DNA from: Myxococcota bacterium
Lineage (GTDB): Bacteria; Myxococcota; SpSt-1050
Length of the DNA: 31,752 nucleotides
Assembly (NCBI GenBank): GCA_049969675.1
Contig: JBMFOP010000031.1
Span: forward strand, 1 to 31,752
Direction: 5' to 3'
In this document: positions 5,701-31,752 of the stretch, one piece after another
How the letters are laid out: each line of letters begins with the position of its first letter
Numbering within the stretch: the stretch's first letter is position 1
Position numbers and translations under genes: made by a program
Notes under the pieces: generated by a model
Databases searched by the model: none
What the model was told of the DNA's origin: nothing
Seen by the model: only the letters and a program-made list of their open reading frames with translations

Positions 5701-8700
5701 GGGCTTTATAAACTCTATTATGAGACAGTGGATGATTTTGGAGAGAAGTATGAGACTCAGAAGACATTTATAGTTGCAGATAGTTCAAGTAGATTTAATC
5801 TCCCTCTGATATTTTATGCCCAGAAGAATAATTACAGAGTTGGGGAGAAAGCAAGATTCCTCACAATCTCTGGCTTGAAGGATACAGTGATATACATTAG
5901 TAGATATCAATCCGGGAAGACTGATAAGGAGGAGATTGTTGATACCTCACTGGGGAGCCCAATCTATGAGTTTAAGATAGAGGAGTATATGAGGGGTGGT
6001 ATTGTAATGACTGCCTCACTATATAATGATTATCAGGTGATTCAGTTGAATGAATCTATCTCAGTGCCATGGGACAATAAGGAATTAAAAATTGAGTTTT
6101 TGACATTCAGAGATACTCTAAGACCTGGTGAAAGAGAGAGATTTAAGATAAAGGTGACAGCGCCAGATGGCGTAAAGAATTTGAGTAAAATTACTGAACT
6201 CCTCTCATATATGTACGATAAGTCCCTTGACTACTTTACATCACATCTATATCCAAATCTTTTAAGTACCTATCCTCAAAAAGGGTTTCTGGGGAGAATA
6301 AGGAGTAACCTGTTTACTGCACATCCTGATTGGGTGAGCTGCAATGGATTCAATCCGCTTCCATCCGCTCCAACTCTTTCTCCCGATTATCTCAAATACT
6401 ATTCAGGTTATGGGATTGGTGGTGTTGGTTACAGGAAAAAGACTCGGACCTTATATGATAATACCAAGTCGGGTGAGGAATATGAGATGGCTGATAAGGC
6501 TTTGCCGGGTGCGGCACCTCCAGCGAAAAGATCTATGGAAAGGGATAAAGGAGATATTTCACCACTTGCAGAAAAGAAACCTACATTGGGTTCATCGGCA
6601 GGCGGTAAGGTTGAACTGGAGAGAGTTACTGATTCTGCTGTTGCTACAAAGAATAATGGAGATGAGACTAGCAAGGGTATTTCAGAGAAGCCATTGGAGA
6701 TGAGGAAGGACTTCTCTGAGACGGCATTTTTTTTACCACATCTACTCCTTGAATCCGATAATACCGCTTCAATAGAATTCAAGGCGCCGGACTCTGTAAC
6801 ATCGTATAATTTATTTGTGCACGCCATTACCAGGGATTTGATGGGTGGGAGTGTCAATAAGGAAGTAAGAGTTATTAAGGAACTTATGGTAAGACCTTAT
6901 CTCCCGAGATTTTTAAGGGAGGGGGATGAGGCAGAGATAAAGGTGGTGGTGAATAACGCCTCTGATAAGGAGATTTCTGGAGATTTAAGATTTGAGATCA
7001 TTGACCCATCAAGTGAGAAAAGCCTGAATGCTGATTTTGGTCTTAAAGATTCAGATACAAATAAATCTTTTAATATCAAACCAAAGGGGTCAACAAATCT
7101 CTCATTTGCAATCAGGACCCCGGTAAAGATTGATATTGTGAATGTCAGGGTGAGTGCCCGCACAAAGGACTTTACAGATGGGGAATTGAGGCAGCTCCCT
7201 ATTCTACCGGGTAGAATGCACCTCATTCAGAGCAAATTTGTAGTATTAAAAGATAAGAGTACAAAAGTTATAAAATTTGACGACCTTTTGAGAAATGATG
7301 ACCCCACACTTATAAATGACCAGATGGTAGTAACCCTTGATGCACAGCTCTTTTTTACAATACTTCAATCTCTACCTTATCTCGTGAATTACCCTTATGA
7401 GTGCACAGAGCAGACATTAAACAGATTTGTCTCCACTGCAATTGTGAGCTCCGTATATAAAAATCACCCGGCGATTGCAAAGATGGCAGAGTCCTTTTCA
7501 AATGAGAGGGATACAAGATTTGAAAAGTGGGACACACCGGATCCAAACAGGAAGATGCTCCTTGAGGAGACCCCATGGCTCAATATGGCAAAGGGCGGAT
7601 TTGAAGCAAAAGAAGACCTGACTAATGTCCTCAACCCGGAGATAGCAAATATGGAACGAGATAGGTCGCTTGATAAATTGAGAAGGGCACAGACCTCAAT
7701 TGGGGGGTTCCCGTGGTTTCCAGGTGGTCCACCATCTCCATATATCACTCTCTACATTTTATACGGCTTTTCAAAGGCGATAGAATTTGGTGTAGACCTC
7801 CCGAGAGATATAATATTGAGGGGATGGCAGTATCTGCATCAACACTATATCACAGAGGTATTCCCTTACGCGAAGGCACACAATTGTTGCTGGGAGTTTA
7901 TCACATTCTTGAATTATGTCCTCTCAAATTACCCGGACAGTTCGTATTATGGGGGGATATTTACACCCGGTGAGAGGGAGGAGATGCTTGAATTCAGTTT
8001 TAAGCACTGGAAGAGCCATTCTCCATATCTCAAGGGCTATCTCGCACTTACCCTTGAGAGAATGAAGAGGCATAAAGACGCAGTTATGGTCTTTGAGAGT
8101 GTAATGGACTCGGCAAAGTATTCTGAAGATGAAGGGACGCACTGGGCACCGGAGGATAGAGGATGGTTATGGTATAACGATTCTATAGAGACACACGCAT
8201 TTGCAATAAGGACACTTCTGGAGGTAATGCCAGAGGATAAGAAACTGGATGGGCTTGTGCAGTGGATTCTTATGAATAAGAAGCTCAATCACTGGAAGTC
8301 AACCAGGGCAACAGCCGAGGTAATTTACTCCCTCATAAAATATATGAAAGCAAATAAGAGTCTTGGCATAAGGGAGGAGGCAAAGGTAATAATTGGTAAT
8401 GATGAATATAAATTTGTATTTGAACCAGATAAATACACAGGGAAGAAGAATCAGATTTTAATCCCGAGGGAGAAGATAAATCCCGAGACCACATCCAAAA
8501 TCACGATAGATAAGGTTAGCAGAGGTTTTATGTTTGCCTCTGCCACCTGGCACTTCTCAACAGAGAAACTTCCAGATGCCGAGAGAGGTGACCTCTTCTC
8601 TATTTCAAGGAGTTATTTCAAGAGAGAGCCAACACAGAAAGGTTATATCCTGAAACCGCTTAAGGAGGGTGCAAAGATTGCAGTTGGAGATCAGATTGAG

Positions 8701-9015
8701 GTACAGATATCAATTAAATCCAGACACCCTGCAGAGTATGTCCACTTAAAAGACCCAAGGCCCGCGGGTTGCGAGCCAGAGAGTACAACCTCAAAACACA
8801 GATGGGATCTCGGCATATACTGGTATGAAGAGGTGAGAGATTCTGCTCAAAACTTCTTCTTTGAAAATCTACCTCAGGGGGAATATACTTTCAAGTATAG
8901 ATTGAGGGCAAATATGGCTGGGAGATTCAAGGTCGCGCCTGCCACAATTCAGTCTATGTATGCACCGGAATTCAATGCCTACTCAAAGGGTGAAACAATA
9001 AATATTTATCAATAA
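2755..9015 (+). CDS. Bacterial alpha-2-macroglobulin family protein, thioester-containing, probable lipoprotein
   Basis: 2086 aa. Signal peptide ending VFCGCG. MG2 motif FTDRSIYRP. VEEYKRPTFEV. Low-complexity bait-like region before MRKDFSETAFF. LPRFLREGD. Thioester motif YPYECTEQ (CxEQ). C-terminal YVHLKDPRPAGCEP and PATIQSMYAPEF. Confidence 0.95.
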   Translation: MKSVTFFCILLLIISIVFCGCGNSIDASTDLKVLEQRGLSDDGIAIKGTQPLPVVEYKAEKIFKKERWENISEPNVPEWSKVNRMVKEQKYEAAYSELEKLLKRFREEKEYERITHTLMKMVQIRMALHGYETAVNFLKSEEWPDGLYSQMVLNLYYAFSLVTYYNSYSWEINNREKVESLNGVDLKKLTKDDIYYEAQRAYLKVFSNREELSNVKIKSFSNYITPNTYPERIRGTLRDAISYLYTQLLDNTNLWKLEELNNVYTLPLEDMLQIKKVIVNLSDRDTHPLLKIVYILDDLSEWHRSNGETEAAFEAYLTKLEILYKRFTDLSDREKVRNSLETALKKIETLEWWTEGMASLASMVMKEGKPDSYITAHRITIDCQKRFSGSIGAKRCLSIQKEIEAPAYSILGMNLDGKNRRSIAVNYKNLNRVYFRAYRMDFFSLLNKAKDYYLYPQYKQLDNIVFRNNPDFEWSEELPETKDYQMHTKYIVPPFKENGLYLIAVSARRGFPKSDNQIQAIYINISDMILETRNDYDNSIGVRVMSGDNGKPVQDAEVCLYRYDWQYGHKMEQCLKSDSSGLTHFINKGYQSNYYFIVARKGDDFTTDLQYSYFYGNVPKDITDRTLIFTDRSIYRPLQKVKWKIVHFHGDFSKGEYKVVTDRQLEVILYDYNHQVVEKKSVTTNEYGTASGEFTIPKGRILGEWTIGTSWGSQYIKVEEYKRPTFEVTLNKPESPLRLNKDAEITGEVKYYFGLPVATGTVRYVITRQAIFPYWWGYYSAGYGYFHGYNRGAQTVASGTEILDKDGRFKVKFLPQADERFAKSDKGITYWYRVNVDVTDEGGETRSASQSYRVGFSSVEANINSDLKFFIAKEKENKFNIVRSGLNGEPKAGRAKYRIVSLKNPEKALMPAEMKREIPDFLKGSDYEKYRHSDDLIRGRWERDYSIDRILFGLKDDKEVKSGEIQHNEKGEYELDLSNLEAGLYKLYYETVDDFGEKYETQKTFIVADSSSRFNLPLIFYAQKNNYRVGEKARFLTISGLKDTVIYISRYQSGKTDKEEIVDTSLGSPIYEFKIEEYMRGGIVMTASLYNDYQVIQLNESISVPWDNKELKIEFLTFRDTLRPGERERFKIKVTAPDGVKNLSKITELLSYMYDKSLDYFTSHLYPNLLSTYPQKGFLGRIRSNLFTAHPDWVSCNGFNPLPSAPTLSPDYLKYYSGYGIGGVGYRKKTRTLYDNTKSGEEYEMADKALPGAAPPAKRSMERDKGDISPLAEKKPTLGSSAGGKVELERVTDSAVATKNNGDETSKGISEKPLEMRKDFSETAFFLPHLLLESDNTASIEFKAPDSVTSYNLFVHAITRDLMGGSVNKEVRVIKELMVRPYLPRFLREGDEAEIKVVVNNASDKEISGDLRFEIIDPSSEKSLNADFGLKDSDTNKSFNIKPKGSTNLSFAIRTPVKIDIVNVRVSARTKDFTDGELRQLPILPGRMHLIQSKFVVLKDKSTKVIKFDDLLRNDDPTLINDQMVVTLDAQLFFTILQSLPYLVNYPYECTEQTLNRFVSTAIVSSVYKNHPAIAKMAESFSNERDTRFEKWDTPDPNRKMLLEETPWLNMAKGGFEAKEDLTNVLNPEIANMERDRSLDKLRRAQTSIGGFPWFPGGPPSPYITLYILYGFSKAIEFGVDLPRDIILRGWQYLHQHYITEVFPYAKAHNCCWEFITFLNYVLSNYPDSSYYGGIFTPGEREEMLEFSFKHWKSHSPYLKGYLALTLERMKRHKDAVMVFESVMDSAKYSEDEGTHWAPEDRGWLWYNDSIETHAFAIRTLLEVMPEDKKLDGLVQWILMNKKLNHWKSTRATAEVIYSLIKYMKANKSLGIREEAKVIIGNDEYKFVFEPDKYTGKKNQILIPREKINPETTSKITIDKVSRGFMFASATWHFSTEKLPDAERGDLFSISRSYFKREPTQKGYILKPLKEGAKIAVGDQIEVQISIKSRHPAEYVHLKDPRPAGCEPESTTSKHRWDLGIYWYEEVRDSAQNFFFENLPQGEYTFKYRLRANMAGRFKVAPATIQSMYAPEFNAYSKGETINIYQ

Positions 9016-9086: not shown

Positions 9087-9159
9087 GGGGCGGTAGCTCA
9101 GATGGGAGAGCATCACGTTCGCAACGTGGAGGCCGGGGGTTCGAATCCCCTCCGCTCCA
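9087..9159 (+). tRNA. tRNA-Ala(CGC), CCA not encoded
   Basis: Acceptor stem GGGGCGG/CCGCTCC with G3:U70. D arm GCTC/GAGC. Anticodon arm TCACG-TTCGCAA-CGTGG. T loop TTCGAAT. Discriminator A followed by TTTT. Confidence 0.96.
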
Positions 9160-16703: not shown

Positions 16704-16777
16704 CGCGCCCGACCCGGCTCGAACGGGTAGCCTTCGGATTCGTAGTCCGGTGCTCTATCCAATTGAGCTACGGGCGC
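16704..16777 (-). tRNA. tRNA-Arg(ACG), CCA not encoded
   Basis: Minus strand reads GCGCCCG TA GCTCAATTGGATAGAGC A CCGGA-CTACGAA-TCCGA AGGCT ACCCG-TTCGAGC-CGGGT CGGGCGC G. Confidence 0.95.
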
Positions 16778-18544: not shown

Positions 18545-21500
18545 TCATTTTAAACAGAATCCAGTCTTTTCCCGCAACCTCAGGAATTCATCAGATACCG
18601 AATATGCAATGATATCCCTTATCTCCTCATCCCTGTTGCACTCCTTCTGTATGGCGTCATAATTGGTTGGCAGCTGTCTCCCCTGCATACTGGATCTATA
18701 TATATAAGAAATTGCAACAGCGGGTGAAGATGTAATAAATAGTCCAACTCTATTTGCACTCATAAAAGATGCCTTCTTGAATACCTTCATATCAAGTTGC
18801 ATCAGATCTGATATTCTATCCTGCATACTCATCAATATCCCTCTATTCTTTCGGGAGAGTCCCTTTGAGAGTCGCTTTGCCATATTAATTGATGCCTCAT
18901 CCTTAATCTGAACACCATATTTGTCCTGTGCCACAAGTAGTAATATGGCATTTGCCAGAATCTGCAATTCTTCCGGGCTCAATGCAGCGGCTGCTATCTG
19001 TCCATCTGCTATAAAGTATAATATCTTTGCAAAGCCAAACTTCTGCTCTTCGGTGGGCAACTTCCTTGCATAGTCGCCTCCAATTATTACTGATGGAGGG
19101 TCTGTTGCCTCCACGAATGATTGAATTCCCTGTTTATCTGCGATGTAAATATTATAGTCCTGAATATTTAGAATCTTTGCAACCTCATCACATCTTGTCC
19201 TTATTAGCTCATTTGACTTTTTAGTCATTCTGGTCTTCTTTACCTCAGGCCCATATTTCTCGATGCCCGGGCTTAATATATCGTGCAGGTCTTCATTTAT
19301 GATACTCAGAATCTCCCTGAATAGTCCGCGTGCCCTATGGTGAATTATATAAAGGTCAATATCTTCTTTCCTGAGTAAGACTTCCTTAACACCTTCAATG
19401 CGATGTCTGATCTCGCCATAGGCAAATTCCTCATCATTTGTTGCACTCTTTAAGCCCAGAAGTGTGCCAATGGCAAAGAAGAGGCCATCTTTGTGTTTTA
19501 TCTGATTGAAGATACGGGATAGTGCCCTGATATTCTCTGTATTGAATGGGTCTATCTGAATAAGTGTTCGGTATTCAATTATTGCCTGTGGATATGTAGA
19601 TGGGTCCGAGGCATAAATCTTTGAAAGCATTACATGTGCGAGGATATTGTTTGGTGCAATCTGAACTACCCTTTTAAGCTCCCTCTCTGCATCCTGATTG
19701 CTCTTCCTGATCTCTGAGTAGATCTCAGCCTTTTTAATCATAAGGGGAATTGCATTTATCTTTTCATGTTCCGGGAATGAATTTATTACGCTCTCATAGA
19801 TAGATAAAAGTTCCTCAATCTTGCCAGCCCTCTCACAGAGTGAGACAAGCCTCCCAAGTAGATCTTCGTTGGTGGGGTCTATCTTAAGTCCCTTCTTTAA
19901 GGTCTCAATGGCTTCATCTACATTTGAGAGACTATTTTCATATATCCCTGCAATTGTATAAATATACTCAAGATTCTTTGTGGGATTCTGGTTTATACTC
20001 AAAAGATATTGATAGGTTTTTAATGCATAATCATAATTATTTTGTGAATAATAAATCATACCCATATACTCCAGTGCCACAATATTATTTGGTTCAAGAG
20101 AAACTACCTTCTGGAAGCTCACAAGCGCACCGTTTATATCTTGCTTATGCGTATATAAGAGTGTTCCGAGGTAGAGATATGAATTCTTCAGGATCTCCTG
20201 TGATTTTGTACAGGAGACGAGGGCACCGAGGTAATTTATAGCCTCATCAAAATTCTTTGATGCGATCAGGTGATTGGAGAGTGCAGCCAGTGCCTCTTCA
20301 TTATATGGGTTGAGGGAAACAGCATTCTTATATGCTGATATAGCCTCGGAAATCTTTGAAGGGTCTCTCTCCAAAAGATGCGCCATCTTTACAAAGATTC
20401 CCGCCTTCTCTAAATTATCTGTCAAGACAGATATCCTCTTTGAATACATTGATATAAGTTCATCAGTGCGATTCTGATTAATAAGTAGCGGCTCAAGTCT
20501 CGTAAATATATTACTATCGGCAGGTGAGAGGTCAAATGCCATCAGATATATGGAGACTGCCCTTGTGATATCACCAATTTTCTCTTCCAGAACCTGTGCC
20601 GCCTCAGTATAGATCCTCTTTTTTACGACATTATTCATAATCTTCTCTGCGAGTGAAATTGAGATTGAGACAAATTCGTTAAATTTATCGCCTTTGTAAT
20701 AATAATCTCTGAGGAGGATAAATGCAGGGATATAATCAGGATATCTCGTTGTTATCTCATTTAGTAGCGATATTGCCAGACTGACTGTCTTTGGGTTTCC
20801 AAGCAGGAGTACGGCAAGTCTAAAGTTCTCAACCACCGATTCTTCCTGCCCGAGATTTAATCTGTTTATAAAATTCTTAAATAACAGACTCAACCCGTCT
20901 GTGTCCATATATTTACTGTATGCCCTTTCAAGTGTATCAATCGCGAGGCGGTTATCCGGCTCAAGTTCCAGCACCTTGATATAGTGAATATAACTCTCCG
21001 AGGGCATCTTCATTACGGTCTCTTTGAGAGCAGCCAATTCAAGATGTATTGAGATCAGCAACTCGTTTGAAAGATTCAGATTTGAGAGCTTCTCGAGCAC
21101 TGTGATGAGTTTGATGTAATCCTTCTCCTCCCTGTATATAGCAGAGAGCATCATAAGCGCCCTTATAAAATTGGGCTCAATGGCAATCACCTTTTCCAGA
21201 TACATAATTGCCCGATTAATCTCCTTGAGCTTATAATAGAATATCTGGGCGAGTTCCCAGTAGAGTTCAGCCTTTTCAGAATCAACCGGCATCTGTGATG
21301 CAAATTCTATTAGCATATCTGCGAGTTCGGTATATCTACCATTCTGCCTGAGAGAATCTATGAGAAGTAATTTTGCATTGCTATTCTCTCTGTTAAGGGC
21401 GAGAGACTTTTTTAAGAACTCTATACCTTTATTGAAATTTTTAAGCCTGTTTATGTAGATATCTCCAACCTGATAAAAGATGTAAGCCTTCTGCTTTATA

Positions 21501-23734
21501 TCTATTACCAGCTCCTCCTCCTTGAGCAGCATATCAATATATCTGTCGTAGCTCCTGAGTTTGAGATATATATCTTTCAGGGCATTGAGTGCAGGAAGAT
21601 TATGTGGATCCAGCATCAGAATCTCTTCATATACCGAGATTGCGCGCTCGGGCATATTGAGTCTATCCTCATATATCTGGGCAATCTTGTGATAGAGCGA
21701 GATGTTGTGTGGCTGGTTTCTTGTGACCTCAATCTCTCTTTTATACATATCAATCAACTCTTCATATCTCTCCTGACAGAGGTAGATATTCCCGAGTGAC
21801 TTTAATGCTGGAAGGTAGTTTGGAGATATCATCAGTGCCTTTTTATAGTATCTAACTGCCTCATCAATATTTTTCAGGTGTTCTTCATATGTCTCTCCTA
21901 TCTTGTGCAGGAGCGAGACTATCTGAATCTGGTCTTTTATAAGTTCCGCCTCAATCTCACACATCTTTATTAAATCCTCCCATCTACCGAGACGGGCATA
22001 TAGACGGGCGAGCGTCCTGATAGTCGGTAAATGGTCCGGGATTATATCCAGAATCCTCCTATATGTCTCAGCCGCCTTCTCCTTATTATTGAGCCTCTCC
22101 TCATATGTAATGCCTATTTTATCCAGCAGGAAGGCCACCTGTTCCTTATCCTCCGTAATCTTTATCTCCTCTTCAAACATATCAATTAGTTCCTGATACA
22201 TCCCGAGCCTTCCATACAGTGTCCCAAGGGCTTTGAGCGCTGGTAGATATGATGACCTTATCTGAAGTATCTGTCTATAAACTGCGATTGCCCTGTTGAG
22301 GTCCTGAATCCTCAATTCAATTATCTCTGCCATCTTATAGTAGCGTGCCACTTTCTGAAGGACATCTTCGGTCTGAGATATCTCCATCTCCATTAATCTA
22401 ACAAGGTCCTCCCACTTTCCGTGTTTTGCAAGCAATCTACCGAGTGCGGCGTAGGCTGGCTGATATGAAGAAGAGGTCTCAATTATCTTTTTATAGTAAT
22501 CTATTGCCGCAACCTCATTCTGTAATTTCTCTTCATAGATGCTACCGAGTCTGAAATATATATTTGCGAGCACATTTTTATCTGAAGTCAGTTCTGCTAT
22601 CCTTTTTAGAATCTCTACAATCTTATCATATTCGTTTTTCTGAAAATATTGATGTAACAGGTCATCAAGTGTAGCGAGGTCAGAAGACCTGAGCCTTAGA
22701 ATCTCGGAGAGATAGTATATTGCCGAATCGGGGTCATTTAGATAATTTTTGTAAAGCACCACAAGTTTGTTATATATATCTACCCTTTTTTCAGGAGGAA
22801 GGGCGTTTGAATGTTGCTTTAATACAGCCGAGAGTTCACTATATTGCTTCTTCGTCATAAGAATATTCTCAATAGCGCTCACCGCATCCCTGTCCGATGG
22901 GTCTATCATAAATATTCTCTCATAGCACTTTAGTGACATATCAGGGTCGTTTAATCTCTCCTCAAATATCTTCCCTTCAAATAGTAGCAAGGTCTTTATA
23001 TAAGGCTCTGGAAGTTTTAGATGTGTAATCTGATCAATTATATTTACCAGTTCTGTGGTATTTCTATTGCGAAAATAGATATTATTCAGAAAATTGAGAA
23101 GATTTACATCACCTGTTGAATCAGAGAGCGCCTGCACAATGGCATCCCGCGCCCCATTGATGTCACTCAGATAATAGAATTTTACAAAGGCTATCTCAAA
23201 CCAGATATCCGCCTTATTCTTTATCTCTGGATTTTGAGCCATTAATTGTAGGAGCTGAACTGCCATTTGATAATTTCCTAAATAATAGAATAATCTAATG
23301 GCAGACCTTACATTCGGGAAGAATGAGAAATCAATATTAAATGCATTCTGAAAATCAATGGCTGCATTCCTCGGTTGCTTTAATTTTTCACTCAGAATTA
23401 TTCCAGCGGAGTTGAATAATACAGAGGCCTCTCTTGTCTGACCGCGGGTCTTTGCCTCGTCCTCCAGATATGAGACTATCTCCTGCCAGTTTATAAACTC
23501 CTTGAGCATCTCTCTTGGGCTCTCTACAGGGATTTTTAGCCTTTCAACAGGTGGAATGCCCTTTATCTCCTCCGAGACCTCCTTCTCTGGCTCTTTCTTT
23601 ACTCCCTCACTAACCTGGGGTTCTGCACCCTCAATCAGCTCTGCCTCCAATAGAGGCATATCCTCTTCCATAGTCTTCGGTTTGGATGAGAACCATTCAT
23701 CAATTATATTACTCTTCTTTTCATCGGAAGACAT
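18545..23734 (-). CDS. Giant tetratricopeptide-repeat protein (myxobacterial type)
   Basis: 1729 aa of tandem TPR-like units (e.g. KIGETYEEHLKNIDEAVRYYKKALMISPNYLPALKSLGNIY). Acidic disordered N-terminus. Non-TPR C-terminal domain ending YSVSDEFLRLREKTG. SD GAGGAGG. Confidence 0.9.
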   Translation of the reverse strand: MSSDEKKSNIIDEWFSSKPKTMEEDMPLLEAELIEGAEPQVSEGVKKEPEKEVSEEIKGIPPVERLKIPVESPREMLKEFINWQEIVSYLEDEAKTRGQTREASVLFNSAGIILSEKLKQPRNAAIDFQNAFNIDFSFFPNVRSAIRLFYYLGNYQMAVQLLQLMAQNPEIKNKADIWFEIAFVKFYYLSDINGARDAIVQALSDSTGDVNLLNFLNNIYFRNRNTTELVNIIDQITHLKLPEPYIKTLLLFEGKIFEERLNDPDMSLKCYERIFMIDPSDRDAVSAIENILMTKKQYSELSAVLKQHSNALPPEKRVDIYNKLVVLYKNYLNDPDSAIYYLSEILRLRSSDLATLDDLLHQYFQKNEYDKIVEILKRIAELTSDKNVLANIYFRLGSIYEEKLQNEVAAIDYYKKIIETSSSYQPAYAALGRLLAKHGKWEDLVRLMEMEISQTEDVLQKVARYYKMAEIIELRIQDLNRAIAVYRQILQIRSSYLPALKALGTLYGRLGMYQELIDMFEEEIKITEDKEQVAFLLDKIGITYEERLNNKEKAAETYRRILDIIPDHLPTIRTLARLYARLGRWEDLIKMCEIEAELIKDQIQIVSLLHKIGETYEEHLKNIDEAVRYYKKALMISPNYLPALKSLGNIYLCQERYEELIDMYKREIEVTRNQPHNISLYHKIAQIYEDRLNMPERAISVYEEILMLDPHNLPALNALKDIYLKLRSYDRYIDMLLKEEELVIDIKQKAYIFYQVGDIYINRLKNFNKGIEFLKKSLALNRENSNAKLLLIDSLRQNGRYTELADMLIEFASQMPVDSEKAELYWELAQIFYYKLKEINRAIMYLEKVIAIEPNFIRALMMLSAIYREEKDYIKLITVLEKLSNLNLSNELLISIHLELAALKETVMKMPSESYIHYIKVLELEPDNRLAIDTLERAYSKYMDTDGLSLLFKNFINRLNLGQEESVVENFRLAVLLLGNPKTVSLAISLLNEITTRYPDYIPAFILLRDYYYKGDKFNEFVSISISLAEKIMNNVVKKRIYTEAAQVLEEKIGDITRAVSIYLMAFDLSPADSNIFTRLEPLLINQNRTDELISMYSKRISVLTDNLEKAGIFVKMAHLLERDPSKISEAISAYKNAVSLNPYNEEALAALSNHLIASKNFDEAINYLGALVSCTKSQEILKNSYLYLGTLLYTHKQDINGALVSFQKVVSLEPNNIVALEYMGMIYYSQNNYDYALKTYQYLLSINQNPTKNLEYIYTIAGIYENSLSNVDEAIETLKKGLKIDPTNEDLLGRLVSLCERAGKIEELLSIYESVINSFPEHEKINAIPLMIKKAEIYSEIRKSNQDAERELKRVVQIAPNNILAHVMLSKIYASDPSTYPQAIIEYRTLIQIDPFNTENIRALSRIFNQIKHKDGLFFAIGTLLGLKSATNDEEFAYGEIRHRIEGVKEVLLRKEDIDLYIIHHRARGLFREILSIINEDLHDILSPGIEKYGPEVKKTRMTKKSNELIRTRCDEVAKILNIQDYNIYIADKQGIQSFVEATDPPSVIIGGDYARKLPTEEQKFGFAKILYFIADGQIAAAALSPEELQILANAILLLVAQDKYGVQIKDEASINMAKRLSKGLSRKNRGILMSMQDRISDLMQLDMKVFKKASFMSANRVGLFITSSPAVAISYIYRSSMQGRQLPTNYDAIQKECNRDEEIRDIIAYSVSDEFLRLREKTGFCLK

Positions 23735-24654: not shown

Positions 24655-25743
24655 ATGTTAAAAAAGATAATTGCTGTCCTGTTTGCCTTATCGGTATGTA
24701 TTCTGATAATCTACTGTGGAGGTTCTGACAACAGGATTGATTTTGGTGATGTGTCCATACAGGACACCATCAGCACAACAGATACGGGAAATAACAATAA
24801 TACAAATGTGTGTAATTCCTGCACCTCTGAGCAATTATGTGCTTATGAAAAGGCCTGTGTCAACAGGCCAACAGAAGAGGCAAAATCAACCAGGGATAGT
24901 CAGAATAATATTTTTGAAACGCCAGACTTCACCTGTATAACAGACTCTCCAAGAAAGCCACAGGGACCTGATAAGGTCAAGATCAAGGGCTGTGTAGATG
25001 CATTCGGGATCTCTGGCAATACTGTTGATGCAAAGATCTCCTTTTATAAAGAGGAAGATATTTTGCAATATGGCGAATGCATAAAGGTTAGTGGGAAGGA
25101 TAATTGCAAAATGCCAGACCCAATTGTACCTGAAGTAATATCCACTCAGGATACTACCTGTGATGACTGGGGCGCTTATGAAGTTGAAAATATTCCGACC
25201 AACACAATGCTGGTAAGATTGGTAAGGCTTGAGGATTTTCACGACACATATCAGTTCAATGTATATTTCCCTGCGGATAAAGACTTAAACAATGATGGTA
25301 TAATCACAGCCGATGAATACGATGACGCAACGGCAAATGGCATTAGTAATTCCACATGGAATCTGATCCCGAGAACAATCGGTCTGCTCGGAATCACAAA
25401 GGGCAATGGAGTCATTGCTGGCAGAGTTAGAGATTGCAAACACTACCCGGTAATGAATGCAACGATAGGGACAGATGGCAAACCGAAGATGCTGGTATAT
25501 TTCAACGGTGATGATGGCAAGGTGGATTCAGATGGTAAGGCAAAGAGTTCGGACCCGGATCCACAGAGAAAATCTACCAATTCTGACGGTCTCTATGCTA
25601 TAGTAGATATCTCACCGGGTAATTACAACATCGCAGCCCTTGCGCAAAAAGATAGTCAAATTGTAAGGCTTGGATATTATATACTTACAGTATTCCCGGA
25701 CGCCGCCACAATACTCTCATTTAAGGAATCACGGGCAAGATAA
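24655..25743 (+). CDS. Lipoprotein with carboxypeptidase-regulatory-like beta-sandwich domains
   Basis: Signal ending ILIIY-CGG. Cys pairs. GVIAGRVRDC...V.NATI and TNSDGLYAIVDISPGNYNI. DxDxNxDG-type Ca-binding-like loop DKDLNNDGIITADE. Confidence 0.75.
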   Translation: MLKKIIAVLFALSVCILIIYCGGSDNRIDFGDVSIQDTISTTDTGNNNNTNVCNSCTSEQLCAYEKACVNRPTEEAKSTRDSQNNIFETPDFTCITDSPRKPQGPDKVKIKGCVDAFGISGNTVDAKISFYKEEDILQYGECIKVSGKDNCKMPDPIVPEVISTQDTTCDDWGAYEVENIPTNTMLVRLVRLEDFHDTYQFNVYFPADKDLNNDGIITADEYDDATANGISNSTWNLIPRTIGLLGITKGNGVIAGRVRDCKHYPVMNATIGTDGKPKMLVYFNGDDGKVDSDGKAKSSDPDPQRKSTNSDGLYAIVDISPGNYNIAALAQKDSQIVRLGYYILTVFPDAATILSFKESRAR

Positions 25744-25836
25744 AGGCAAGAGTCTCCCTCATCATTAAATAGTTTATAGAGATGACACCCTCGGTTCTTC
25801 TCTTAAGAAAGAACATTACAGAGACTCCATATTATA

Positions 25837-25865
25837 TTGCAAAAAGAGATTTTGACAAATATAAT
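25837..25865 (+). promoter_or_regulatory. Putative promoter of the methyltransferase (TTGCAA-N17-TATAAT)
   Basis: TTGCAA 25837-25842 and TATAAT 25860-25865. GTG 25874 would then be almost leaderless. Confidence 0.45.
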
Positions 25866-25873
25866 AAAATCCT

Positions 25874-26803
25874 GTGAAGAGAGTTTCTAATTCATATAAT
25901 TATTTATTTTTCAAAACCATTAAAATCAATAAAGAGAGAAAACGATGCCCGGTGATAGATTATTTAAGTGATTTAAACCCCGTTAGAACGATCGGTTTAT
26001 TCAAAGGCAGTAAGATTGATATTTATTATACTGATACAAAGGACTTCAACGACGAACAATTGGCATGGTTTAAATATGAGAAAGGTCAGATTTACAGGCA
26101 GAGAGATAATAAAACTTACATTAATGATTTCAAAAAACAGCTAATAAAAATGAATATACATCCATATTGTAATAGATGCATATATAAATTTAGCTGTCCT
26201 AACATATGGGTGGAAGAGAAGAAAGATCTATTTGAGGAATCAGAAAAAATAGTAAGAAGTCTTCTGATAAAGATGAGAGGAAATGTACTTGATATTGGCT
26301 GCGGCTCAATCAATTTATACGAAGGTATATTAAAAAATCTTTCTATCAACAATAAAATTAATTATACTGGTATAGACCCAAACTCTAAGAGCATAAAAAA
26401 TATGAAAAAACTATACAAAGATTATAATAATATAAAGTTCATCAAAACGACCATAGAAAAGTACCCCGCAAAAGATATAAAATACGATTATGTTTTATTA
26501 CTCAGAAGTATCAATCACATAAAGAACACAACAAGTCTTTTCAAAAAAATAAAAAAAATATTGAAAAAAGGTGGGAAACTATTGATTGTAGACAATATCC
26601 CTTTTGGCGTAATAAGAGATGGAAGTTTTCTATCTGATACCAATAAAAAACCAATAAAAAACCCGGTCTTTGAACATTTTCATAATTATGATAGCATAGA
26701 TATATTAAGATTTTTAAGAGTAAAGCATATATGTATAAAGCTTCATACATCTGTAACGATGTATACTTCAAACCAGTGGTTGTTATTAGGATTTATCTCA
26801 TAA
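25874..26803 (+). CDS. Class I SAM-dependent methyltransferase with N-terminal CxxC-x5-C region
   Basis: Motif I VLDIGCG, YTGIDP, YDYVLLLRSINH, ILKKGGKLLIVD. CNRCIYKFSCP lies upstream of the MTase fold. The start codon is uncertain. Confidence 0.85.
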   Translation: MKRVSNSYNYLFFKTIKINKERKRCPVIDYLSDLNPVRTIGLFKGSKIDIYYTDTKDFNDEQLAWFKYEKGQIYRQRDNKTYINDFKKQLIKMNIHPYCNRCIYKFSCPNIWVEEKKDLFEESEKIVRSLLIKMRGNVLDIGCGSINLYEGILKNLSINNKINYTGIDPNSKSIKNMKKLYKDYNNIKFIKTTIEKYPAKDIKYDYVLLLRSINHIKNTTSLFKKIKKILKKGGKLLIVDNIPFGVIRDGSFLSDTNKKPIKNPVFEHFHNYDSIDILRFLRVKHICIKLHTSVTMYTSNQWLLLGFIS

Positions 26804-26807
26804 GGAT

Positions 26808-28139
26808 TTAGTGATTAAAAAATTGATAAAGTATCTCATATTGTTCATCAAAAGACTTTTTATAATTATCAGATATATCCGACAGCCCTCTTCTTACCAA
26901 ATTTATATCCTTACTATTAAATATGGATAAAAGTTTCTCTTTTATTAAAAATTCTTCATTACTTCTTGCTAATGGAAAAAGATTCCCATTCAGTTCTGCC
27001 AGATCTTTATTACTAATGAGATTATAATATCTTTTATAATCAAGGGTTTTTGGAGTCAATGTTAAAGGAAATGGCTGAGGAATTCCTCCCACCATTATAG
27101 GAATTAAATAACATCCTATAATTCCCTCAATGTCATCCTCTGGATAACCAAGCATAAATGTAAAATGAGATCTTCTAAAGTCAAAACCACCTTTATATAA
27201 CTTCAATACGCTGTTCAATATATCATTAAAGTTATACGGTTTTCTGAAGTACCGCATCATATTTTTACTTGCGCTTTCAAGAGGAATGGTTATGCTTTTA
27301 ACATTAGATGATATGAATAGATCAATCATCTCCTCATCCAATCTATTTGGTTGAATCCCCATCTCAAAACTTAATGATATATCTGGTAATCTGTTTTTTA
27401 TTTTATTGATGAATAATTTTAATATATCTGGCCTTAACATAACATTTGGATCCCAATTTTCAAAGTAAGTGATGTTAAAATCATTATATATAGTGTCTAT
27501 CTCATTTATCACTTTTTTCACATCATATACTTCTAGTGTTGATGATTTTTTATTACAACAAAAGGAACAGTTATAAATACACCCATCAATCAACTTGAAA
27601 ATTGCAAGTGGAGGTATTCTATTTAATGCTGAATAATCAGGTATATAGTATTTTGCCTTATTGAAATTTCCCCTGTATAGCCTTGCTCCCAGTTTTGAGG
27701 CATGCTCTGGAATCCATGTCGGATAAAAACCTCCAAGAATTATATCTGATTTTGTATAATTATTTTTAATGTATTTAAGGATATCCCATATAATAGGATA
27801 GTTATATGTCAAGCAAGAAGTAATAAAAAATTTCTCAATATTTTCCTTTATTACAGATAATCTTTTTTTCAAATAATCTATATCCATCCCCATTATTCGA
27901 ATCTCCTTTTCAAAACTTGTATTTCCACACCGAATGTATTTATATAGAGGGAGAGACTCAAACTCTACCTTTTGTTCAGGATTATATATATTCATATCAA
28001 TAAAATGACAGTTGCCTATAATTCTTCTATAAAATGAGAATATTTTAAGAAATCCGTATGGATAATGACTTGCCTGAGATTCCAATTGAAATCTGTCAGC
28101 AACCAGAGCCGGTGGATTTATAAAAACATATGTCTTCAT
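26808..28139 (-). CDS. Cobalamin-binding-type radical SAM protein
   Basis: B12-domain-like N-terminus (FINPP...PYGFLKI...ITS.LTY.YP...IILGGFYPT). CxxxCxxC motif GCIYNCSFC. PLES and FMLGYP. ATGA overlap with the upstream gene. Confidence 0.85.
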   Translation of the reverse strand: MKTYVFINPPALVADRFQLESQASHYPYGFLKIFSFYRRIIGNCHFIDMNIYNPEQKVEFESLPLYKYIRCGNTSFEKEIRIMGMDIDYLKKRLSVIKENIEKFFITSCLTYNYPIIWDILKYIKNNYTKSDIILGGFYPTWIPEHASKLGARLYRGNFNKAKYYIPDYSALNRIPPLAIFKLIDGCIYNCSFCCNKKSSTLEVYDVKKVINEIDTIYNDFNITYFENWDPNVMLRPDILKLFINKIKNRLPDISLSFEMGIQPNRLDEEMIDLFISSNVKSITIPLESASKNMMRYFRKPYNFNDILNSVLKLYKGGFDFRRSHFTFMLGYPEDDIEGIIGCYLIPIMVGGIPQPFPLTLTPKTLDYKRYYNLISNKDLAELNGNLFPLARSNEEFLIKEKLLSIFNSKDINLVRRGLSDISDNYKKSFDEQYEILYQFFNH

Positions 28140-29200
28140 ATTAGATAATACAATGTTATATGCTCTGCTTTATAAGAAACAGTCAAATAAGTCAGAATAA
28201 TACTATGTTCATCCATTATCTCTCCAAAAAACTTATTCATACCTATATTATTTTCAATAATATCTATATGTGCTGAATTATAGCAATACCTGCCATCATC
28301 TCTTACCAGCAGAGAATTATGTAGGACCCTTTTAAGAAAAAATTTATCTTTCAAACAGAGTTTATTCTCTAAATAATTTGATTTAATCTTATTTTTAAAC
28401 AAATAGTATCTCGGGCCATTTATCTTCCCTTCTAAAATCGTGAATCTGAGAAGGCTATTATCTTTTTTCCTAAAATATACCTTATAAATTAAATTGTGAT
28501 TATCATCCAATCCGACTCCAAAGATAAGATTATCTAAATTGACTACCCTATTTTTTATTAATAAAATTTCATCTATTACTTTTTTTGGAAGCAAATCTAC
28601 ATAAAAATTATATATAATATTATTGTATTCATCTCTAAATTTATTGTATATACCAACCACATATCTATAACATAAGATCCTTTCAGTATTGAGATTAAAT
28701 TTTATTGAAAACTCCAATGGGTATGATTGATATTCCTTAACACGTTCTACATAATCAAGTACCCTTCTATCAAAGAGAATGGACATTTCATCTCTTACAT
28801 TATCTATATTTCTCAACTTTTTTATATGCCTGTTATAGATGCTTATATCTAATAATCTCCTTTCAATAGCCTCAATTTTATTGTTTCTGACAAATGGACC
28901 AGGGCAGACATTATACAATATACATTTTGTACACACAGGCAGGTGAATTGTTTTATAATCCCCTGTTATTTTTACTTTTGATGAAATTGTATGGTCATAA
29001 TATAATAACTCTCTTATTTTAGTAAAAAAGCACGGACTGATATTTTTAAATTCTATAACTTTTACATCATCTCTCCTTATTTTTTCTCCCAATCTGTCTA
29101 TCTCTCCACACAATTGATTGAATTTTAATTCACTAATTTTATCAATGCTCAACAATATTCTTTTATTATCGTTAAAAATAATTTGAATAATAATATTCAT
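28136..29200 (-). CDS. Hypothetical protein: N-terminal Cys module (SPC...CxxC-x5-CPG) + possible ABBA prenyltransferase-like C-terminal domain
   Basis: 354-aa ORF with ATGA overlaps on both sides. CTKCILYNVCPG. C-terminal blocks LEFSIKF...RY, FGVGLD...KVYFR and EHITLYY. The ORF is well supported; the function is tentative. Confidence 0.6.
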   Translation of the reverse strand: MNIIIQIIFNDNKRILLSIDKISELKFNQLCGEIDRLGEKIRRDDVKVIEFKNISPCFFTKIRELLYYDHTISSKVKITGDYKTIHLPVCTKCILYNVCPGPFVRNNKIEAIERRLLDISIYNRHIKKLRNIDNVRDEMSILFDRRVLDYVERVKEYQSYPLEFSIKFNLNTERILCYRYVVGIYNKFRDEYNNIIYNFYVDLLPKKVIDEILLIKNRVVNLDNLIFGVGLDDNHNLIYKVYFRKKDNSLLRFTILEGKINGPRYYLFKNKIKSNYLENKLCLKDKFFLKRVLHNSLLVRDDGRYCYNSAHIDIIENNIGMNKFFGEIMDEHSIILTYLTVSYKAEHITLYYLI

Positions 29201-30105
29201 TTGATTATGTTAATTTGGTTAAATTCACCATCCCCATATAAGTCTAAATAATTTTTTGAAACACCGATACATAAATTTATAAATTTACATCTTTTACAAA
29301 CACCAAATCTCGTTAAATTCATAAACCTCTCATTGTCCAGCCTGAATGTCTCCATTGGAGTTACAACCACGCAATCCTCATCAAAAGGATTCCAATAATA
29401 ACTACTATATCTTACACCTAATAAACAAAAAGGGAAATACATAAGTTTTATCCTCAGATTCTTTTTATGCTTATCTATCAAGTCTCTCAATATTGGGATA
29501 ACTTCACTATATCTATATGATAAGTACTTTATATTATCCAGAGCCCTTCCACTTATCCAAAGTGCCCAATAATTAACACTGGCAATATGTTTAGATATAA
29601 TATAATTGGTGATTTCATTTAATTGGGAGATGATATTATTTGTAACGACGATATCTACTATCAGTTCTAACTTTTTCTTTAATATGTTATCTATAGCAAT
29701 GTTGACATATTGAAACGATTTATCTACATTAGTAATAGAGCGATATTCATTATCATTTACTGACCTTAATGAGAGTCTTACTTTATTTAATCCACCCTTC
29801 ACAAGACGGTCTAAAAAATCTTCATAAAAAAGCAGATAGCCATTTGTTTGTAATGAAATTTTCTTTATGTGATGCCTTTTCGCTATTTCAATCAATTGTA
29901 TTATATCTTTTCTTATTGTTGGTTCTCCACCACCAAATCGGATCTCTGTGGGACTATATACATTGAGTGCCTCGTCCAGCAATTTAGATGCTTTGTTTGA
30001 GTTTAAATTGATTTTCCTAATTTTTTCGTCAATAGAGCAATATATACATCCAGAATTACAAGAATATCCAGGGATAAAATCTAATAATTTAATCTTTTTT
30101 GCCAT
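29197..30105 (-). CDS. Radical SAM protein, HxsC-like, with C-terminal Cys module
   Basis: YSCNSGCIYC, GGGEPT, LQTNG, FPFCLL and CKRCKFINLCIG...YLDLYGDGEF. ATG 30105 (MAKKIK) overlaps the upstream gene by 17 nt and is preferred to the track start at 30141. Confidence 0.88.
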   Translation of the reverse strand: MAKKIKLLDFIPGYSCNSGCIYCSIDEKIRKINLNSNKASKLLDEALNVYSPTEIRFGGGEPTIRKDIIQLIEIAKRHHIKKISLQTNGYLLFYEDFLDRLVKGGLNKVRLSLRSVNDNEYRSITNVDKSFQYVNIAIDNILKKKLELIVDIVVTNNIISQLNEITNYIISKHIASVNYWALWISGRALDNIKYLSYRYSEVIPILRDLIDKHKKNLRIKLMYFPFCLLGVRYSSYYWNPFDEDCVVVTPMETFRLDNERFMNLTRFGVCKRCKFINLCIGVSKNYLDLYGDGEFNQINIIK

Positions 30106-31752
30106 ATATCCAGTGCCCCTTACAAAATATCTCAAATTCACAATTATAACAATCTCTTCTATATATTCTACGCTTGGATAGATATTCTGATAAATTTACA
30201 ATCTGACCATTGGTAAATAACATATATCGCTCACTCTTATAGTAATCTGAATACATATACTTTGCAAGTTCTGGGGCTATACAAAATTCAAAATTTATTA
30301 GATTTACCTGAATATTATTATGTTCACAGTAATCTATTGTTTTGATCAAATGTCTTTTCAACTTTTCCTTAGGTGGAATAAGGGCTGAATTTACAACTCC
30401 AAAAGGGGTATAATATTGGATATTATATGTCTTTACTCCCAGTGTACATAGAAGCTGAGATATATATAGTATGTCAGTATAGTTATAAGATGTTATAGTT
30501 GTATTGATCCCAATTTTATTATGGTCAAACATATTGACTACATTTTTGATGCCTGTAATTGTTTGTATAAAACTCAATTTAGTTGAAGTCAAAAATTCCT
30601 GTTTTCTCTTATTACTGCTATGTAAAGAAATCAAAATAAATAAATTTTTAAATTTTTTCAATGATTCCACGACCTCTCTGTAATAAAACATCTTACCATT
30701 TGTGGTTATAGTAATCCTTTTGTAGCCTAACAGGGTAGCAAAATTAATTAATTTCTTCAAATGAGGGTATAATAAGGGTTCTCCTCCATCTATGTCCAAT
30801 AGTTCATATCCCTTTTTCCTATAATCATTAATAATCTTAATCTGGTAATTAATGTCACCATCAACCCTTTCTCTATCACCAACAGAGCAAAATATACATT
30901 TATTATTACACTTATAACTTACATTAATTATTAACTTTCTCTCCACATCTTTATTTTGAATTATCTTTATATATTCAAATAGGGGTTGATAATATTGTAT
31001 GTTTATCGGTTTTCTGAAAAGTTCATCTATATTGTGTCTTTGATGGACATAAGCGCACATCCTACTTTTTGGTACATATTTTTGAAAATGAACTTTTACT
31101 CCATAATTTTTTATCCATTCGCCAATTTCCTTAAATGATTTTATTACATCCCTTTTCCTCTCTCCTGGTATTCCATACATACAATGTAGTTTTACTGACA
31201 CTCCATATTCATATAATAATTGCAGTTTTTCTCTAATTAAAGAGACGGTGAAGGCTTTATTTAACAATCTCAAAATCTTATCATTCCCTGCTTCTGGTGA
31301 AAGATAGATAACATCTGTACATTCTTTTAATTTTTTTACTATATCTCTATTTAAATGCATTAGCCCGATACCGTTTGCAAAATGGAGCCTTAAATTTAAC
31401 CCTATTACAATATCAAGAAATGTTGAAAAATACTCCATATCTAAGTTAGGGTATTGGTCAATAATAATTATTTCTTCTACACCATGTTTTTTCAAAAACA
31501 TCAGGTCATCTCTAATATTATTTACTCCTATAATCCTGTATTTCTCCTTTTTACCAGAACAGAAAACACAATGAAAATTACAGCCGCTACTAATTTTATA
31601 TGGAAATATATTCTTTACATCATTTATATCTTTTATCAAGTCAATCTCAATAGCCTTTCTCAGATATCTGGTAACAAGTTTAATATTGATATCTTTAATA
31701 AAAGGTAATCCCTCATACACCTCATTCATACTCTTATTTAAAAATGGAGTTA
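30089..31752 (-). CDS. Double radical SAM domain protein (B12-class-like rSAM + HxsC-like rSAM), 5'-truncated by the window edge
   Basis: First motif GCNFHCVFC with IID...FANG...SPEAG...MYGIPGE. Second motif KCNNKCIFC with DGGEPL and ITTNG. C-terminal FEFC...CYNCEFEIFCKG. The frame stays open from ATG 31729 to the edge (...TPFLNKS-M). Confidence 0.88.
   Translation of the reverse strand, partial: TPFLNKSMNEVYEGLPFIKDINIKLVTRYLRKAIEIDLIKDINDVKNIFPYKISSGCNFHCVFCSGKKEKYRIIGVNNIRDDLMFLKKHGVEEIIIIDQYPNLDMEYFSTFLDIVIGLNLRLHFANGIGLMHLNRDIVKKLKECTDVIYLSPEAGNDKILRLLNKAFTVSLIREKLQLLYEYGVSVKLHCMYGIPGERKRDVIKSFKEIGEWIKNYGVKVHFQKYVPKSRMCAYVHQRHNIDELFRKPINIQYYQPLFEYIKIIQNKDVERKLIINVSYKCNNKCIFCSVGDRERVDGDINYQIKIINDYRKKGYELLDIDGGEPLLYPHLKKLINFATLLGYKRITITTNGKMFYYREVVESLKKFKNLFILISLHSSNKRKQEFLTSTKLSFIQTITGIKNVVNMFDHNKIGINTTITSYNYTDILYISQLLCTLGVKTYNIQYYTPFGVVNSALIPPKEKLKRHLIKTIDYCEHNNIQVNLINFEFCIAPELAKYMYSDYYKSERYMLFTNGQIVNLSEYLSKRRIYRRDCYNCEFEIFCKGHWIYGKKD

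Follow-up and report, generated by a model that had tools for sequence, protein, structure and literature searches.

Among the systems related to the genes described here, HXS is the one that has been studied: according to the accessible part of the published report (PMC13128918), HxsB, HxsC and HxsD process the protein HxsA (TIGR03976-03979), add +8 Da and block the entry of phage DNA, four genes, HxsD-HxsB-HxsC-HxsA, make up the system in over 99.8% of cases, and the chemistry of HxsB and HxsC is unresolved. His-Xaa-Ser is also mentioned in passing in the available part of another paper (PMC9062424). Group VI nitrogenase-like (Nfl) loci rich in radical S-adenosylmethionine (SAM) enzymes were reported in 2020 in Elusimicrobia, Myxococcales and Gracilibacteria, as far as the accessible text of that report goes (bioRxiv 10.1101/765248). 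In this study, we analyzed five genes, named A to E, at positions 25,874 to 31,752 of a Myxococcota contig (JBMFOP010000031.1, assembly GCA_049969675.1). The window is this entire contig of 31,752 nucleotides (C31), from a host genome of 3.05 Mb with a G+C content (GC) of 38.9%, 188 contigs and 99.9% completeness. From gene neighborhoods and predicted structures, we consider it probable that the five genes form the right part of a variable cassette of low GC that tailors the peptide of an HxsA4 pathway, probably including a group VI nitrogenase-like reductase. The cassette likely decorates HxsA4 because its relatives adjoin hxsA4 in other genomes, the peptide being encoded elsewhere in the host.

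As in canonical HXS, in which a His-x-Ser repeat protein is matured by HxsB and HxsC-type enzymes, the host has an HxsB that passes the TIGR03978 model, and A and B share the second Cys cluster motif of HXS HxsC, but fail the HxsC cut-off. Compared with HXS HxsA (TIGR03979), the host peptide has a short (H-G/A-S)n core, which is uncharged and ends in Trp, and no peptidoglycan-binding domain; without basic residues and a wall-binding domain, an antiphage role of HxsA4 is therefore an analogy only. Instead of a compact four-gene operon, the host has scattered genes to which B12-type enzymes, a predicted prenyltransferase, a methyltransferase and Nfl genes are added. The host peptide passes the HxsA4 cut-off of the HxsA4/HxsC4 variant defined by NCBIfam (NF038313, NF038315, NF038332), the minimal form of which (HxsD, HxsD-like, HxsB, HxsA4, HxsC4) occurs in genome G230, but no tested host protein reaches the HxsC4 cut-off (best, 185 and 181 of 500 bits), and the window genes are extra paralogues and unrelated tailoring enzymes outside any model. 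No paper naming HxsA4 or joining it with group VI loci was found in a search that left out most subscription literature. The original prediction spoke of an undescribed pathway; this holds in that no paper was found to link the parts, and is qualified by the HxsA4/HxsC4 models and by the group VI loci, published in 2020 without a peptide. What the present locus adds is a dispersed, cassette-like form in Myxococcota, the unit formed by C and D, a split fusion and a counted background.

Genes A to D lie on the minus strand. Gene A (30,089-31,752) is open at the contig end, with 553 residues visible, and has CxxxCxxC motifs at residue 57 (31,559-31,582, a B12-type radical SAM core) and residue 281 (30,887-30,910, an HxsC-like radical SAM domain) and a C-terminal CxxCx5CxG. 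Gene B (29,197-30,105; 302 residues from ATG, with an alternative GTG start at 30,141) encodes an HxsC-like radical SAM enzyme with CxxxCxxC at 30,037-30,060 and, again, a C-terminal CxxCx5CxG. Gene C (28,136-29,200; 354 residues) encodes a predicted ABBA-fold prenyltransferase, and its partner D (26,808-28,139; 443 residues) a radical SAM enzyme with CxxxCxxC at 27,558-27,581. Gene E, on the plus strand (25,874-26,803; 309 residues), combines an HxsC-type Cys motif with a class I SAM methyltransferase. A CxxCx5Cx(G/P) motif of HxsC type, read directly from the sequences, is common to A, B, C and E. A Pfam scan of the five proteins gave two Radical_SAM matches in A, one in B, one in D and a class I methyltransferase in E, with zero matches for C. 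Together with the open reading frame calls, this bears out the four CxxxCxxC domains in three proteins and the methyltransferase of the original prediction, and the gene overlaps (17 nt between A and B at 30,089-30,105; ATGA at 29,197-29,200 and 28,136-28,139) and the 4-nt gap between the convergent D and E are exactly as it had them. Its SPASM label needs a small correction: none of the five proteins matches the Pfam SPASM model. The low GC that it noted is the genome-wide minimum among comparable windows: 0.284 for the cluster, against 0.393 in the remaining window and a minimum of 0.314 (mean 0.391, standard deviation 0.021) in 2,191 other 5.9-kb windows of the genome.

The original prediction spoke of HxsB/HxsC-like enzymes, and HxsC and HxsC4 are indeed the nearest models of A and B, but at scores far under the curated cut-offs: 84 of 268 bits for HxsC and 75 of 500 for HxsC4 in A, and 71 of 268 and 101.5 of 500 in B, for which these are the best models. 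Other host enzymes likewise remain below the HxsC cut-off of 267.9 (TIGR03977), with 94 bits for an enzyme on contig C20, 105 for a dual enzyme on C74 and 120 for one on C61. Further HxsC paralogues are encoded on C16, C61, C132 and C74, and the host genome as a whole has eight or more HxsC-like domains and 62 Radical_SAM matches. B is 53% identical to its counterpart in loci L026 and L027 and 32% identical to the gene at the same position in a Desulfobacter cluster (L012), and a profile built from 11 dual enzymes that lie in hxsA4/hxsB clusters matches A at E 2e-124 (next best, 4e-63). A fusion of about 600 residues, joining an HxsC-like part to a methyltransferase, adjoins hxsA4 in nine genomes (G004, G006, G016, G025, G045, G051, G061, G067 and G096). 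E is 29% identical over 275 residues to the fusion of L012; a profile of the C-terminal halves of the nine fusions matches E at E 5e-59 (next, 3e-7), and a profile of their N-terminal halves matches the gene adjoining host hxsA4 on C74 at E 4e-83. By these profile matches, E is the split-off C-half of an HxsC-methyltransferase fusion, the N-half of which stands beside host hxsA4, and this split fusion is the most specific link between the cassette and hxsA4.

On C74, the host genes are ordered as a small gene, hxsB, hxsA4 and the dual HxsC-like gene. HxsB (C74:10149-11663) scores 537.8 bits against the TIGR03978 cut-off of 370, and HxsA4 (C74:9768-10145) scores 69.7 bits against the NF038313 cut-off of 55. 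The small gene, of 68 residues, occupies an HxsD-like position; it has no NCBIfam match, but its counterparts in other genomes do. HxsA4 consists of a conserved leader with a twin-arginine-like, hydrophobic stretch and a core in which H-C-S leads into (H-G/A-S)n and a terminal Trp; this Trp is invariant in all 17 aligned HxsA4 sequences. The core offers Trp, His and Ser as acceptors. Identity of HxsA4 between congeners is 70-82%, and its look-alikes in the protein atlas come mostly from Myxococcota and Elusimicrobiota, phyla of group VI. No short repeat-type precursor was found among the open reading frames left of the cassette, and the other (H-x-S)3 matches in the host genome fall only in unrelated frames. 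The substrate, which the original prediction left unknown, is thus narrowed by HxsA4 and HxsB on C74 and by the homologues of A and E beside hxsA4/hxsB elsewhere. Some observations on neighboring genes and on HxsA4 itself may be recorded here. A DUF5989 small membrane protein (C74:11836-12006) lies immediately upstream of the hxsD-like gene, and such a protein is also found, with a carbamoyltransferase, in the G045 cluster. An A24 prepilin-peptidase-like protein (C132:3581-4708; Pfam E 1e-4, under the cut-off) directly follows an HxsC paralogue and is a candidate leader peptidase. Genome G165 has a tandem pair of hxsA4 genes (L292:10353-11609), one with about 60 His-Gly-Ser repeats, and the HxsA4 match in G003 (C78, L214:4661-5035) contains one in-frame TGA, which may reflect an assembly error or a broken gene.

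The original prediction had named an absence of co-occurring homologues in other genomes as grounds for giving it up; neighborhood analysis of D loci found them to co-occur. Fifteen aligned D homologues were used to fetch 15 loci from GTDB genomes and 12 from metagenomes, and a sample of 400 genomes of the phylum, including 2 of the 15 D genomes, served as background. Each of the 15 GTDB genomes that carry a D homologue has HxsB above cut-off, compared with 50 of the 400 sample genomes. A C-family protein was present in 15/15 D genomes and HxsA4 in 13/15 (12 above cut-off), as well as in 17 of 18 genomes with a NifH paralogue (below), the misses being fragmentary assemblies. Three genomes of the sample carry the C family and five carry D, all three and all five being HxsB-positive. 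Of the 62 HxsB-positive genomes in the sample, 4 have a C-family protein, and each of these 4 either is of HxsA4 type or has its hxsB at the edge of a contig. Counterparts of E, taken as best matches, lie ≤10.5 kb from hxsA4 or hxsB in 13 of 29 fetched genomes, and those of A ≤11 kb in 12 of 29; G062 was excluded from these counts, the true distances there being 38-48 kb. D lies ≤50 kb from hxsA4 or hxsB in six of the 15 genomes (G062, G065, G067, G068, G074 and G075). In the Desulfobacter genome, hxsA4, hxsB, nflHDK, A, B, D, C and the fusion are all found within 50 kb; the cluster of G016 runs hxsB-nflH-nflD-nflK-hxsA4-hxsC/methyltransferase; and in G233, a weaker D homologue, counterparts of A, B and E or the fusion, hxsB and hxsA4 form one cluster with no Nfl genes. 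HxsA4 also occurs without Nfl genes in G230, G349 and others; therefore, the peptide and HxsB would be the core of the pathway, to which Nfl, the C-D pair, A, B and E are options.

D loci often hold NifH/D/K-like genes, and the host counterparts are on C75 (NflH) and C1. The NifD/NifK-like pair (C1:66537-69696) scores at best 57 and 47 bits, where the cut-offs are 505 and 529, and the NifH paralogue is under all four cut-offs tested (NifH, CfbC, BchL and BchX). In the tree, NifH, BchL and BchX each form a separate group with 100/100 support, and the host paralogue groups with P0249, labeled Elusimicrobia (80/83), and, with modest support, with radical-SAM-linked paralogues. Monophyly of the 21 radical-SAM-linked rows was neither shown nor rejected (approximately unbiased test, p-AU 0.195) in this tree, which does not include the published reference set. 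Of 80 sample genomes with a NifH-like match, 37 were placed in the tree and the rest were judged by score; three partial matches (G101, G324 and G326) were left out. A NifH paralogue 45-52% identical to that of the host occurs in 14/15 D genomes, and all 18 other sample genomes whose NifH paralogue groups with the host's have HxsB (18/18). A long-branch sequence of G284, which has no HxsB match, lay within the group and was left out of the count; this genome carries two adjoining, very divergent NifH-like genes (C2:142200-143867, L131). On phylogenetic and score grounds, the host NifH paralogue fits a group VI-like assignment. The host shares with the published group VI loci the divergent NifH/D/K-like genes and the many radical SAM and B12-binding genes, but its parts are dispersed over contigs. 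For the published loci, Meheust et al. predict a tetrapyrrole-derived cofactor from NifH phylogeny and from fusions of B12-binding and HemN_C domains, and the terms Hxs, peptide, prenyl and RiPP do not appear in the accessible main text of that report (bioRxiv 10.1101/765248). A review of July 2026 repeats the tetrapyrrole prediction and, in the part available, still lists group VI under unknown cofactor synthesis (PMC13474568).

Gene C was the least recognizable member of the cluster. A single-sequence search and the protein atlas gave no identification, no Pfam or NCBIfam model matched the C family above cut-off, the curated LynF/TruF/PatF model found no match in 16 members, DMATS matches were weak, and a cluster look-up of ten members returned only 'hypothetical protein', in a family of 170 representatives at 50% identity. 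In sequence-profile searches of PDB with the family, however, ABBA prenyltransferases made up 5/5 and then 9/10 matches, the best being KgpF (8YE0, E 4.4e-5). The predicted model of C (predicted local distance difference test, pLDDT, 73.9) comprises an N-terminal domain of about 80 residues, the Cys motif at residues 90-101 and an ABBA-fold part at residues ~115-354. In VIA-align, the top 19 rows for this model are all ABBA enzymes (Z 11.5-14.6), compared with Z 7.1 for the first other fold; PatF/DciF match best (Z 14.6, root-mean-square deviation 4.0-4.2, 220-228 residues aligned), with PagF and CymD also among the best ABBA matches, and the top Foldseek matches are all ABBA prenyltransferases. 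The family-invariant residues E163, S165, R179, G228, K240, Y242, Y266 and Y351 are retained in C according to the alignments, and E163, R179, K240, Y242, Y266 and Y351 align to KgpF/9VTD positions; the conserved basic and Tyr residues of the inner ABBA strands are those that we take to bind diphosphate. The K264 position is Arg in C, and several other consensus residues of the family differ. C thus resembles the cyanobactin F-family and DMATS enzymes (PatF, PagF, KgpF, LimF, DciF; CymD, 6-DMATS) in its predicted barrel and conserved Glu/Arg/Lys/Tyr, but is only 7-14% identical to them, has an additional N-terminal Cys motif and a radical SAM partner or fusion, and forms a separate family. A profile of the family neighboring D has C as its sole match in the host genome. 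Among the 27 D loci, a C-family gene lies directly upstream of D in 15, downstream in 1 and in the same operon in 1, is fused to the C-terminus of D in 4, and is a weak match at a contig edge in 1 (22/27 overall). Less divergent C-D fusions occur in L016 and L022. Judging from these models and neighborhoods, C is a predicted ABBA prenyltransferase whose gene nearly always lies beside D, the B12-type radical SAM gene, or is fused to it. In G062, a 601-residue protein after nflK (L012:925-2727) is a second, weak C-family match (E 4e-6).

The original prediction also spoke of B12-dependent radical SAM enzymes. The B12-binding Pfam model PF02310 finds no match in D or in the visible part of A, but this domain is present in 12/15 D homologues, D is nearest to B12-type family models in the model scan, and its predicted structure (pLDDT 85.7; predicted template modeling score, pTM, 0.87) shows an N-terminal Rossmann, B12-binding-like domain and a radical SAM barrel. 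Its best fold matches are MtaB/MiaB, AprD4, TsrM, MgmA, CysS, OxsB and TokK; D shares the Rossmann domain and barrel with TsrM, TokK, CysS, MgmA and OxsB, but at only 11-14% identity. B12 binding by D is therefore likely because of its homologues and predicted fold. Additional B12-binding radical SAM arrays with glycosyltransferases are found on host contigs C44, C52 and C110, one array is in congener G002 (C41), and similar genes also lie inside the superclusters of G006 and G004.

The cluster continues beyond the window, as anticipated, and by synteny with three relatives it runs on into contig C20. The A-B-C-D order and the convergent E recur in L026 and L027 at 27-55% identity, and there the cluster is extended by a surface lipoprotein, a 154-residue remnant, an HxsC-like enzyme and then a complete 690-residue A. 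At its end, C20 carries a 697-residue surface protein, an 877-residue protein, a 414-residue HxsC-like enzyme and the first ~125 residues of A (35889-36263), with about 16 codons absent between C20 and the window contig. A is 55% identical to the complete protein of L026/L027, and its N-terminal part is 40% identical. The join is inferred from this synteny alone: a DNA overlap search and tblastn in the genome found no continuation, and no bridge across the gap was seen in a public hot-spring DNA run, by which all 30 bins of positions 25,000-31,752 are covered, mostly by 99%-identical contigs; this run may be the source sample. The low-GC contigs C136 and C153 were ruled out as continuations, as they carry type I CRISPR-Cas genes in translations read by eye. 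The 877-residue protein (C20:32040-34670) has a widely spaced Cys...CxxC motif and DUF483, and is shrunk to 154 residues in L026/L027 by an internal deletion.

Horizontal acquisition was proposed originally; a recent event of this kind is not supported because congeners carry a cassette at the same site. In congener G003, both cassette ends lie between the same flanks as in the host and the middle falls in an assembly gap, and in G001 a differently filled low-GC cassette (GC 0.30-0.34) occupies the host's site; no cassette was found in G002. B, C and D were not found in G001 or G002, and in G003 the assembly gap falls exactly where they would lie. Cassette proteins are 27-55% identical to their congeneric orthologues, compared with 63-87% for most housekeeping neighbors, and one HxsC-like gene has been lost in the host relative to G003/L027. 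The cassette is old within the genus, variable and fast-evolving, with no recent arrival; an ancient acquisition is possible.

Considering all the above results, we propose a plausible model for the pathway. HxsA4 would be engaged by HxsB and the HxsD-like protein. Its His/Ser residues would undergo radical cross-linking or carbon insertion by the HxsC paralogues (B, the C-half of A and the C20 enzyme), in the manner of canonical HXS. Methylation of unactivated or aromatic carbons might fall to the B12-type domains (D and the N-half of A), C might transfer a C5/C10 prenyl group onto the C-terminal Trp or a His, and D might act on the target residue of C or on the prenyl group. E would make N- or O-methyl additions, and reduction of a modified residue would be the task of NflHDK (C75, C1). 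This would yield a histidine-rich peptide that is heavily modified, exported and anchored by lipid, with a possible role in envelope defense or metal binding. Cyanobactin-type enzymes prenylate varied peptide residues, as stated in the available part of a recent paper (PMC13290415). The earlier idea that the genes tailor a peptide by radical chemistry and methylation, probably with prenylation as well, is supported, the predicted ABBA fold of C included. A bolder reading, which we advance only tentatively, is that HxsA4 serves as precursor to a class, so far undescribed, of exported, prenylated and polymethylated His-rich peptides, made by ribosomes and modified after translation (RiPPs), in Myxococcota and Elusimicrobia, with swapped tailoring cassettes, a new ABBA family joined to a B12-type radical SAM unit, and the group VI complex as the first nitrogenase relative to reduce a ribosomal peptide.

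Several points weigh against the assignment to HxsA4, which is built on guilt by association and predicted structure. The co-occurrence counts include related genomes, and kin are not independent; the hxsA4/hxsB regions of the 29 genomes were fetched in pieces of 8-80 kb each from a non-random choice. C and D are rare options, as the C-family count among HxsB-positive sample genomes (4/62) indicates. D is on a separate or short contig in 9/15 genomes, C or D stands apart from hxs genes in G073, G075 and G335, and the host cassette, hxsA4/hxsB, nflH and nflDK are spread over five contigs. The invariant Trp of HxsA4 is also kept in genomes without the C family, and therefore Trp alone is no evidence for prenylation; a structure prediction of C in complex with the HxsA4 core (score 0.02) spoke neither for nor against the pairing. 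The C of the window is a fast-diverging copy, 27% identical to its syntenic orthologue, compared with 43-55% for its neighbors, and several consensus residues are changed. AprD4 and MiaB, neither of which is a B12 methyltransferase, are among the top fold matches of D; as they match equally, methyl transfer by D is only a possibility.

Some of these points lend themselves to other explanations. Indole-directed small-molecule prenyltransferases of the DMATS type fit C nearly as well as peptide enzymes (Z 13-14), D resembles TsrM, which acts on free tryptophan, and AprD4, which acts on an aminoglycoside, the large clusters also contain glycosyltransferases, a carbamoyltransferase and a nucleotidyltransferase, with DUF5989 in superclusters and beside the host hxsD-like gene, and contigs C44, C52 and C110 of the host carry further B12 radical SAM arrays. 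The cassette might thus make or decorate a small molecule, lipid or surface glycan, such as a prenylated, methylated indole, and merely share islands with Hxs genes. We regard this as unlikely, since it leaves unexplained why E is half of the gene following hxsA4, why A follows hxsB, and why C and D turned up in HxsB-positive genomes only. The building of a tetrapyrrole-derived cofactor by these enzymes together with the group VI reductase, following Meheust et al. (2020), agrees with the published prediction, as far as its two sources were accessible (bioRxiv 10.1101/765248; PMC13474568), with the action of related reductases on tetrapyrroles, and with the NifH paralogue in 14/15 D genomes. 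We consider it quite improbable: HemB and HemC were not found in the host or three congeners but are present in 11/14 control genomes (tetrapyrrole scavenging would be compatible with this), no chelatase or hem gene was noticed in gene maps, for which no profile search was made, and counterparts of A, B, D and E accompany hxsA4 in the Nfl-free cluster of G233.

If another protein were the substrate, the candidates would be the Cys-rich surface lipoprotein heading the C20 cassette, which has its 697-residue form immediately before the cassette in the host, G001, G003, L026 and L027, or the large Ig-repeat proteins preceding hxsD in many clusters; upstream of hxsD, choice-of-anchor D or MopE-repeat proteins are found in G016, G045, G051, G096 and G349. 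Such a substrate is highly improbable: these surface proteins vary among clusters and exist in many paralogous copies, in contrast to HxsA4, which is conserved and has a known family member that HxsB/HxsC modify. That the cassette is a decaying accessory island with inactive enzymes, C above all, would agree with its very low GC, with its divergence from congeneric orthologues relative to housekeeping neighbors, and with the HxsC-like gene loss in the host and the internal deletion in L026/L027; it is hardly credible given five intact, translationally coupled frames, with Fe-S motifs and invariant prenyltransferase residues kept in three lineages.

Tailoring of HxsA4, our favored reading, would, if true, give the group VI nitrogenase-like family, substrate-less since 2020, a candidate substrate. 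It would also tie a family with a prenyltransferase fold, B12-type enzymes and a methyltransferase to one short peptide, and therefore the questions of the Nfl substrate and of HxsB/HxsC chemistry would become testable. Such a pathway, scattered over several loci in fragmented or rearranged genomes, would be missed by mining based on neighborhoods alone. Furthermore, as this genome was found in a hot-spring run, its enzymes may be stable biocatalysts for Trp/His lipidation.

Upstream of gene E, two back-to-back sigma-70-like promoter matches were found, at 25,837-25,865 on the plus strand (10/12) and 25,858-25,831 on the minus strand (11/12). They are consensus matches alone, 17 such matches being found in the region when 9.8 were expected; the leftward one points toward the site where G003 and L027 retain another HxsC-like gene. 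The Rfam scan of the window gave two tRNAs and nothing else (9,087-9,159 and 16,704-16,777). Outside the cluster, the window encodes a three-part fusion protein that joins a cyclic-nucleotide-binding domain to acetate kinase and a PduL-type phosphate acyltransferase (299-2,605, minus strand), a bacterial alpha-2-macroglobulin of 2,086 residues (2,755-9,015, plus strand), followed by the first tRNA, a PilZ protein of the myxobacterial type (TIGR02266; 18,148-18,525, minus strand) and a TPR protein of 1,729 residues (18,545-23,734, minus strand).

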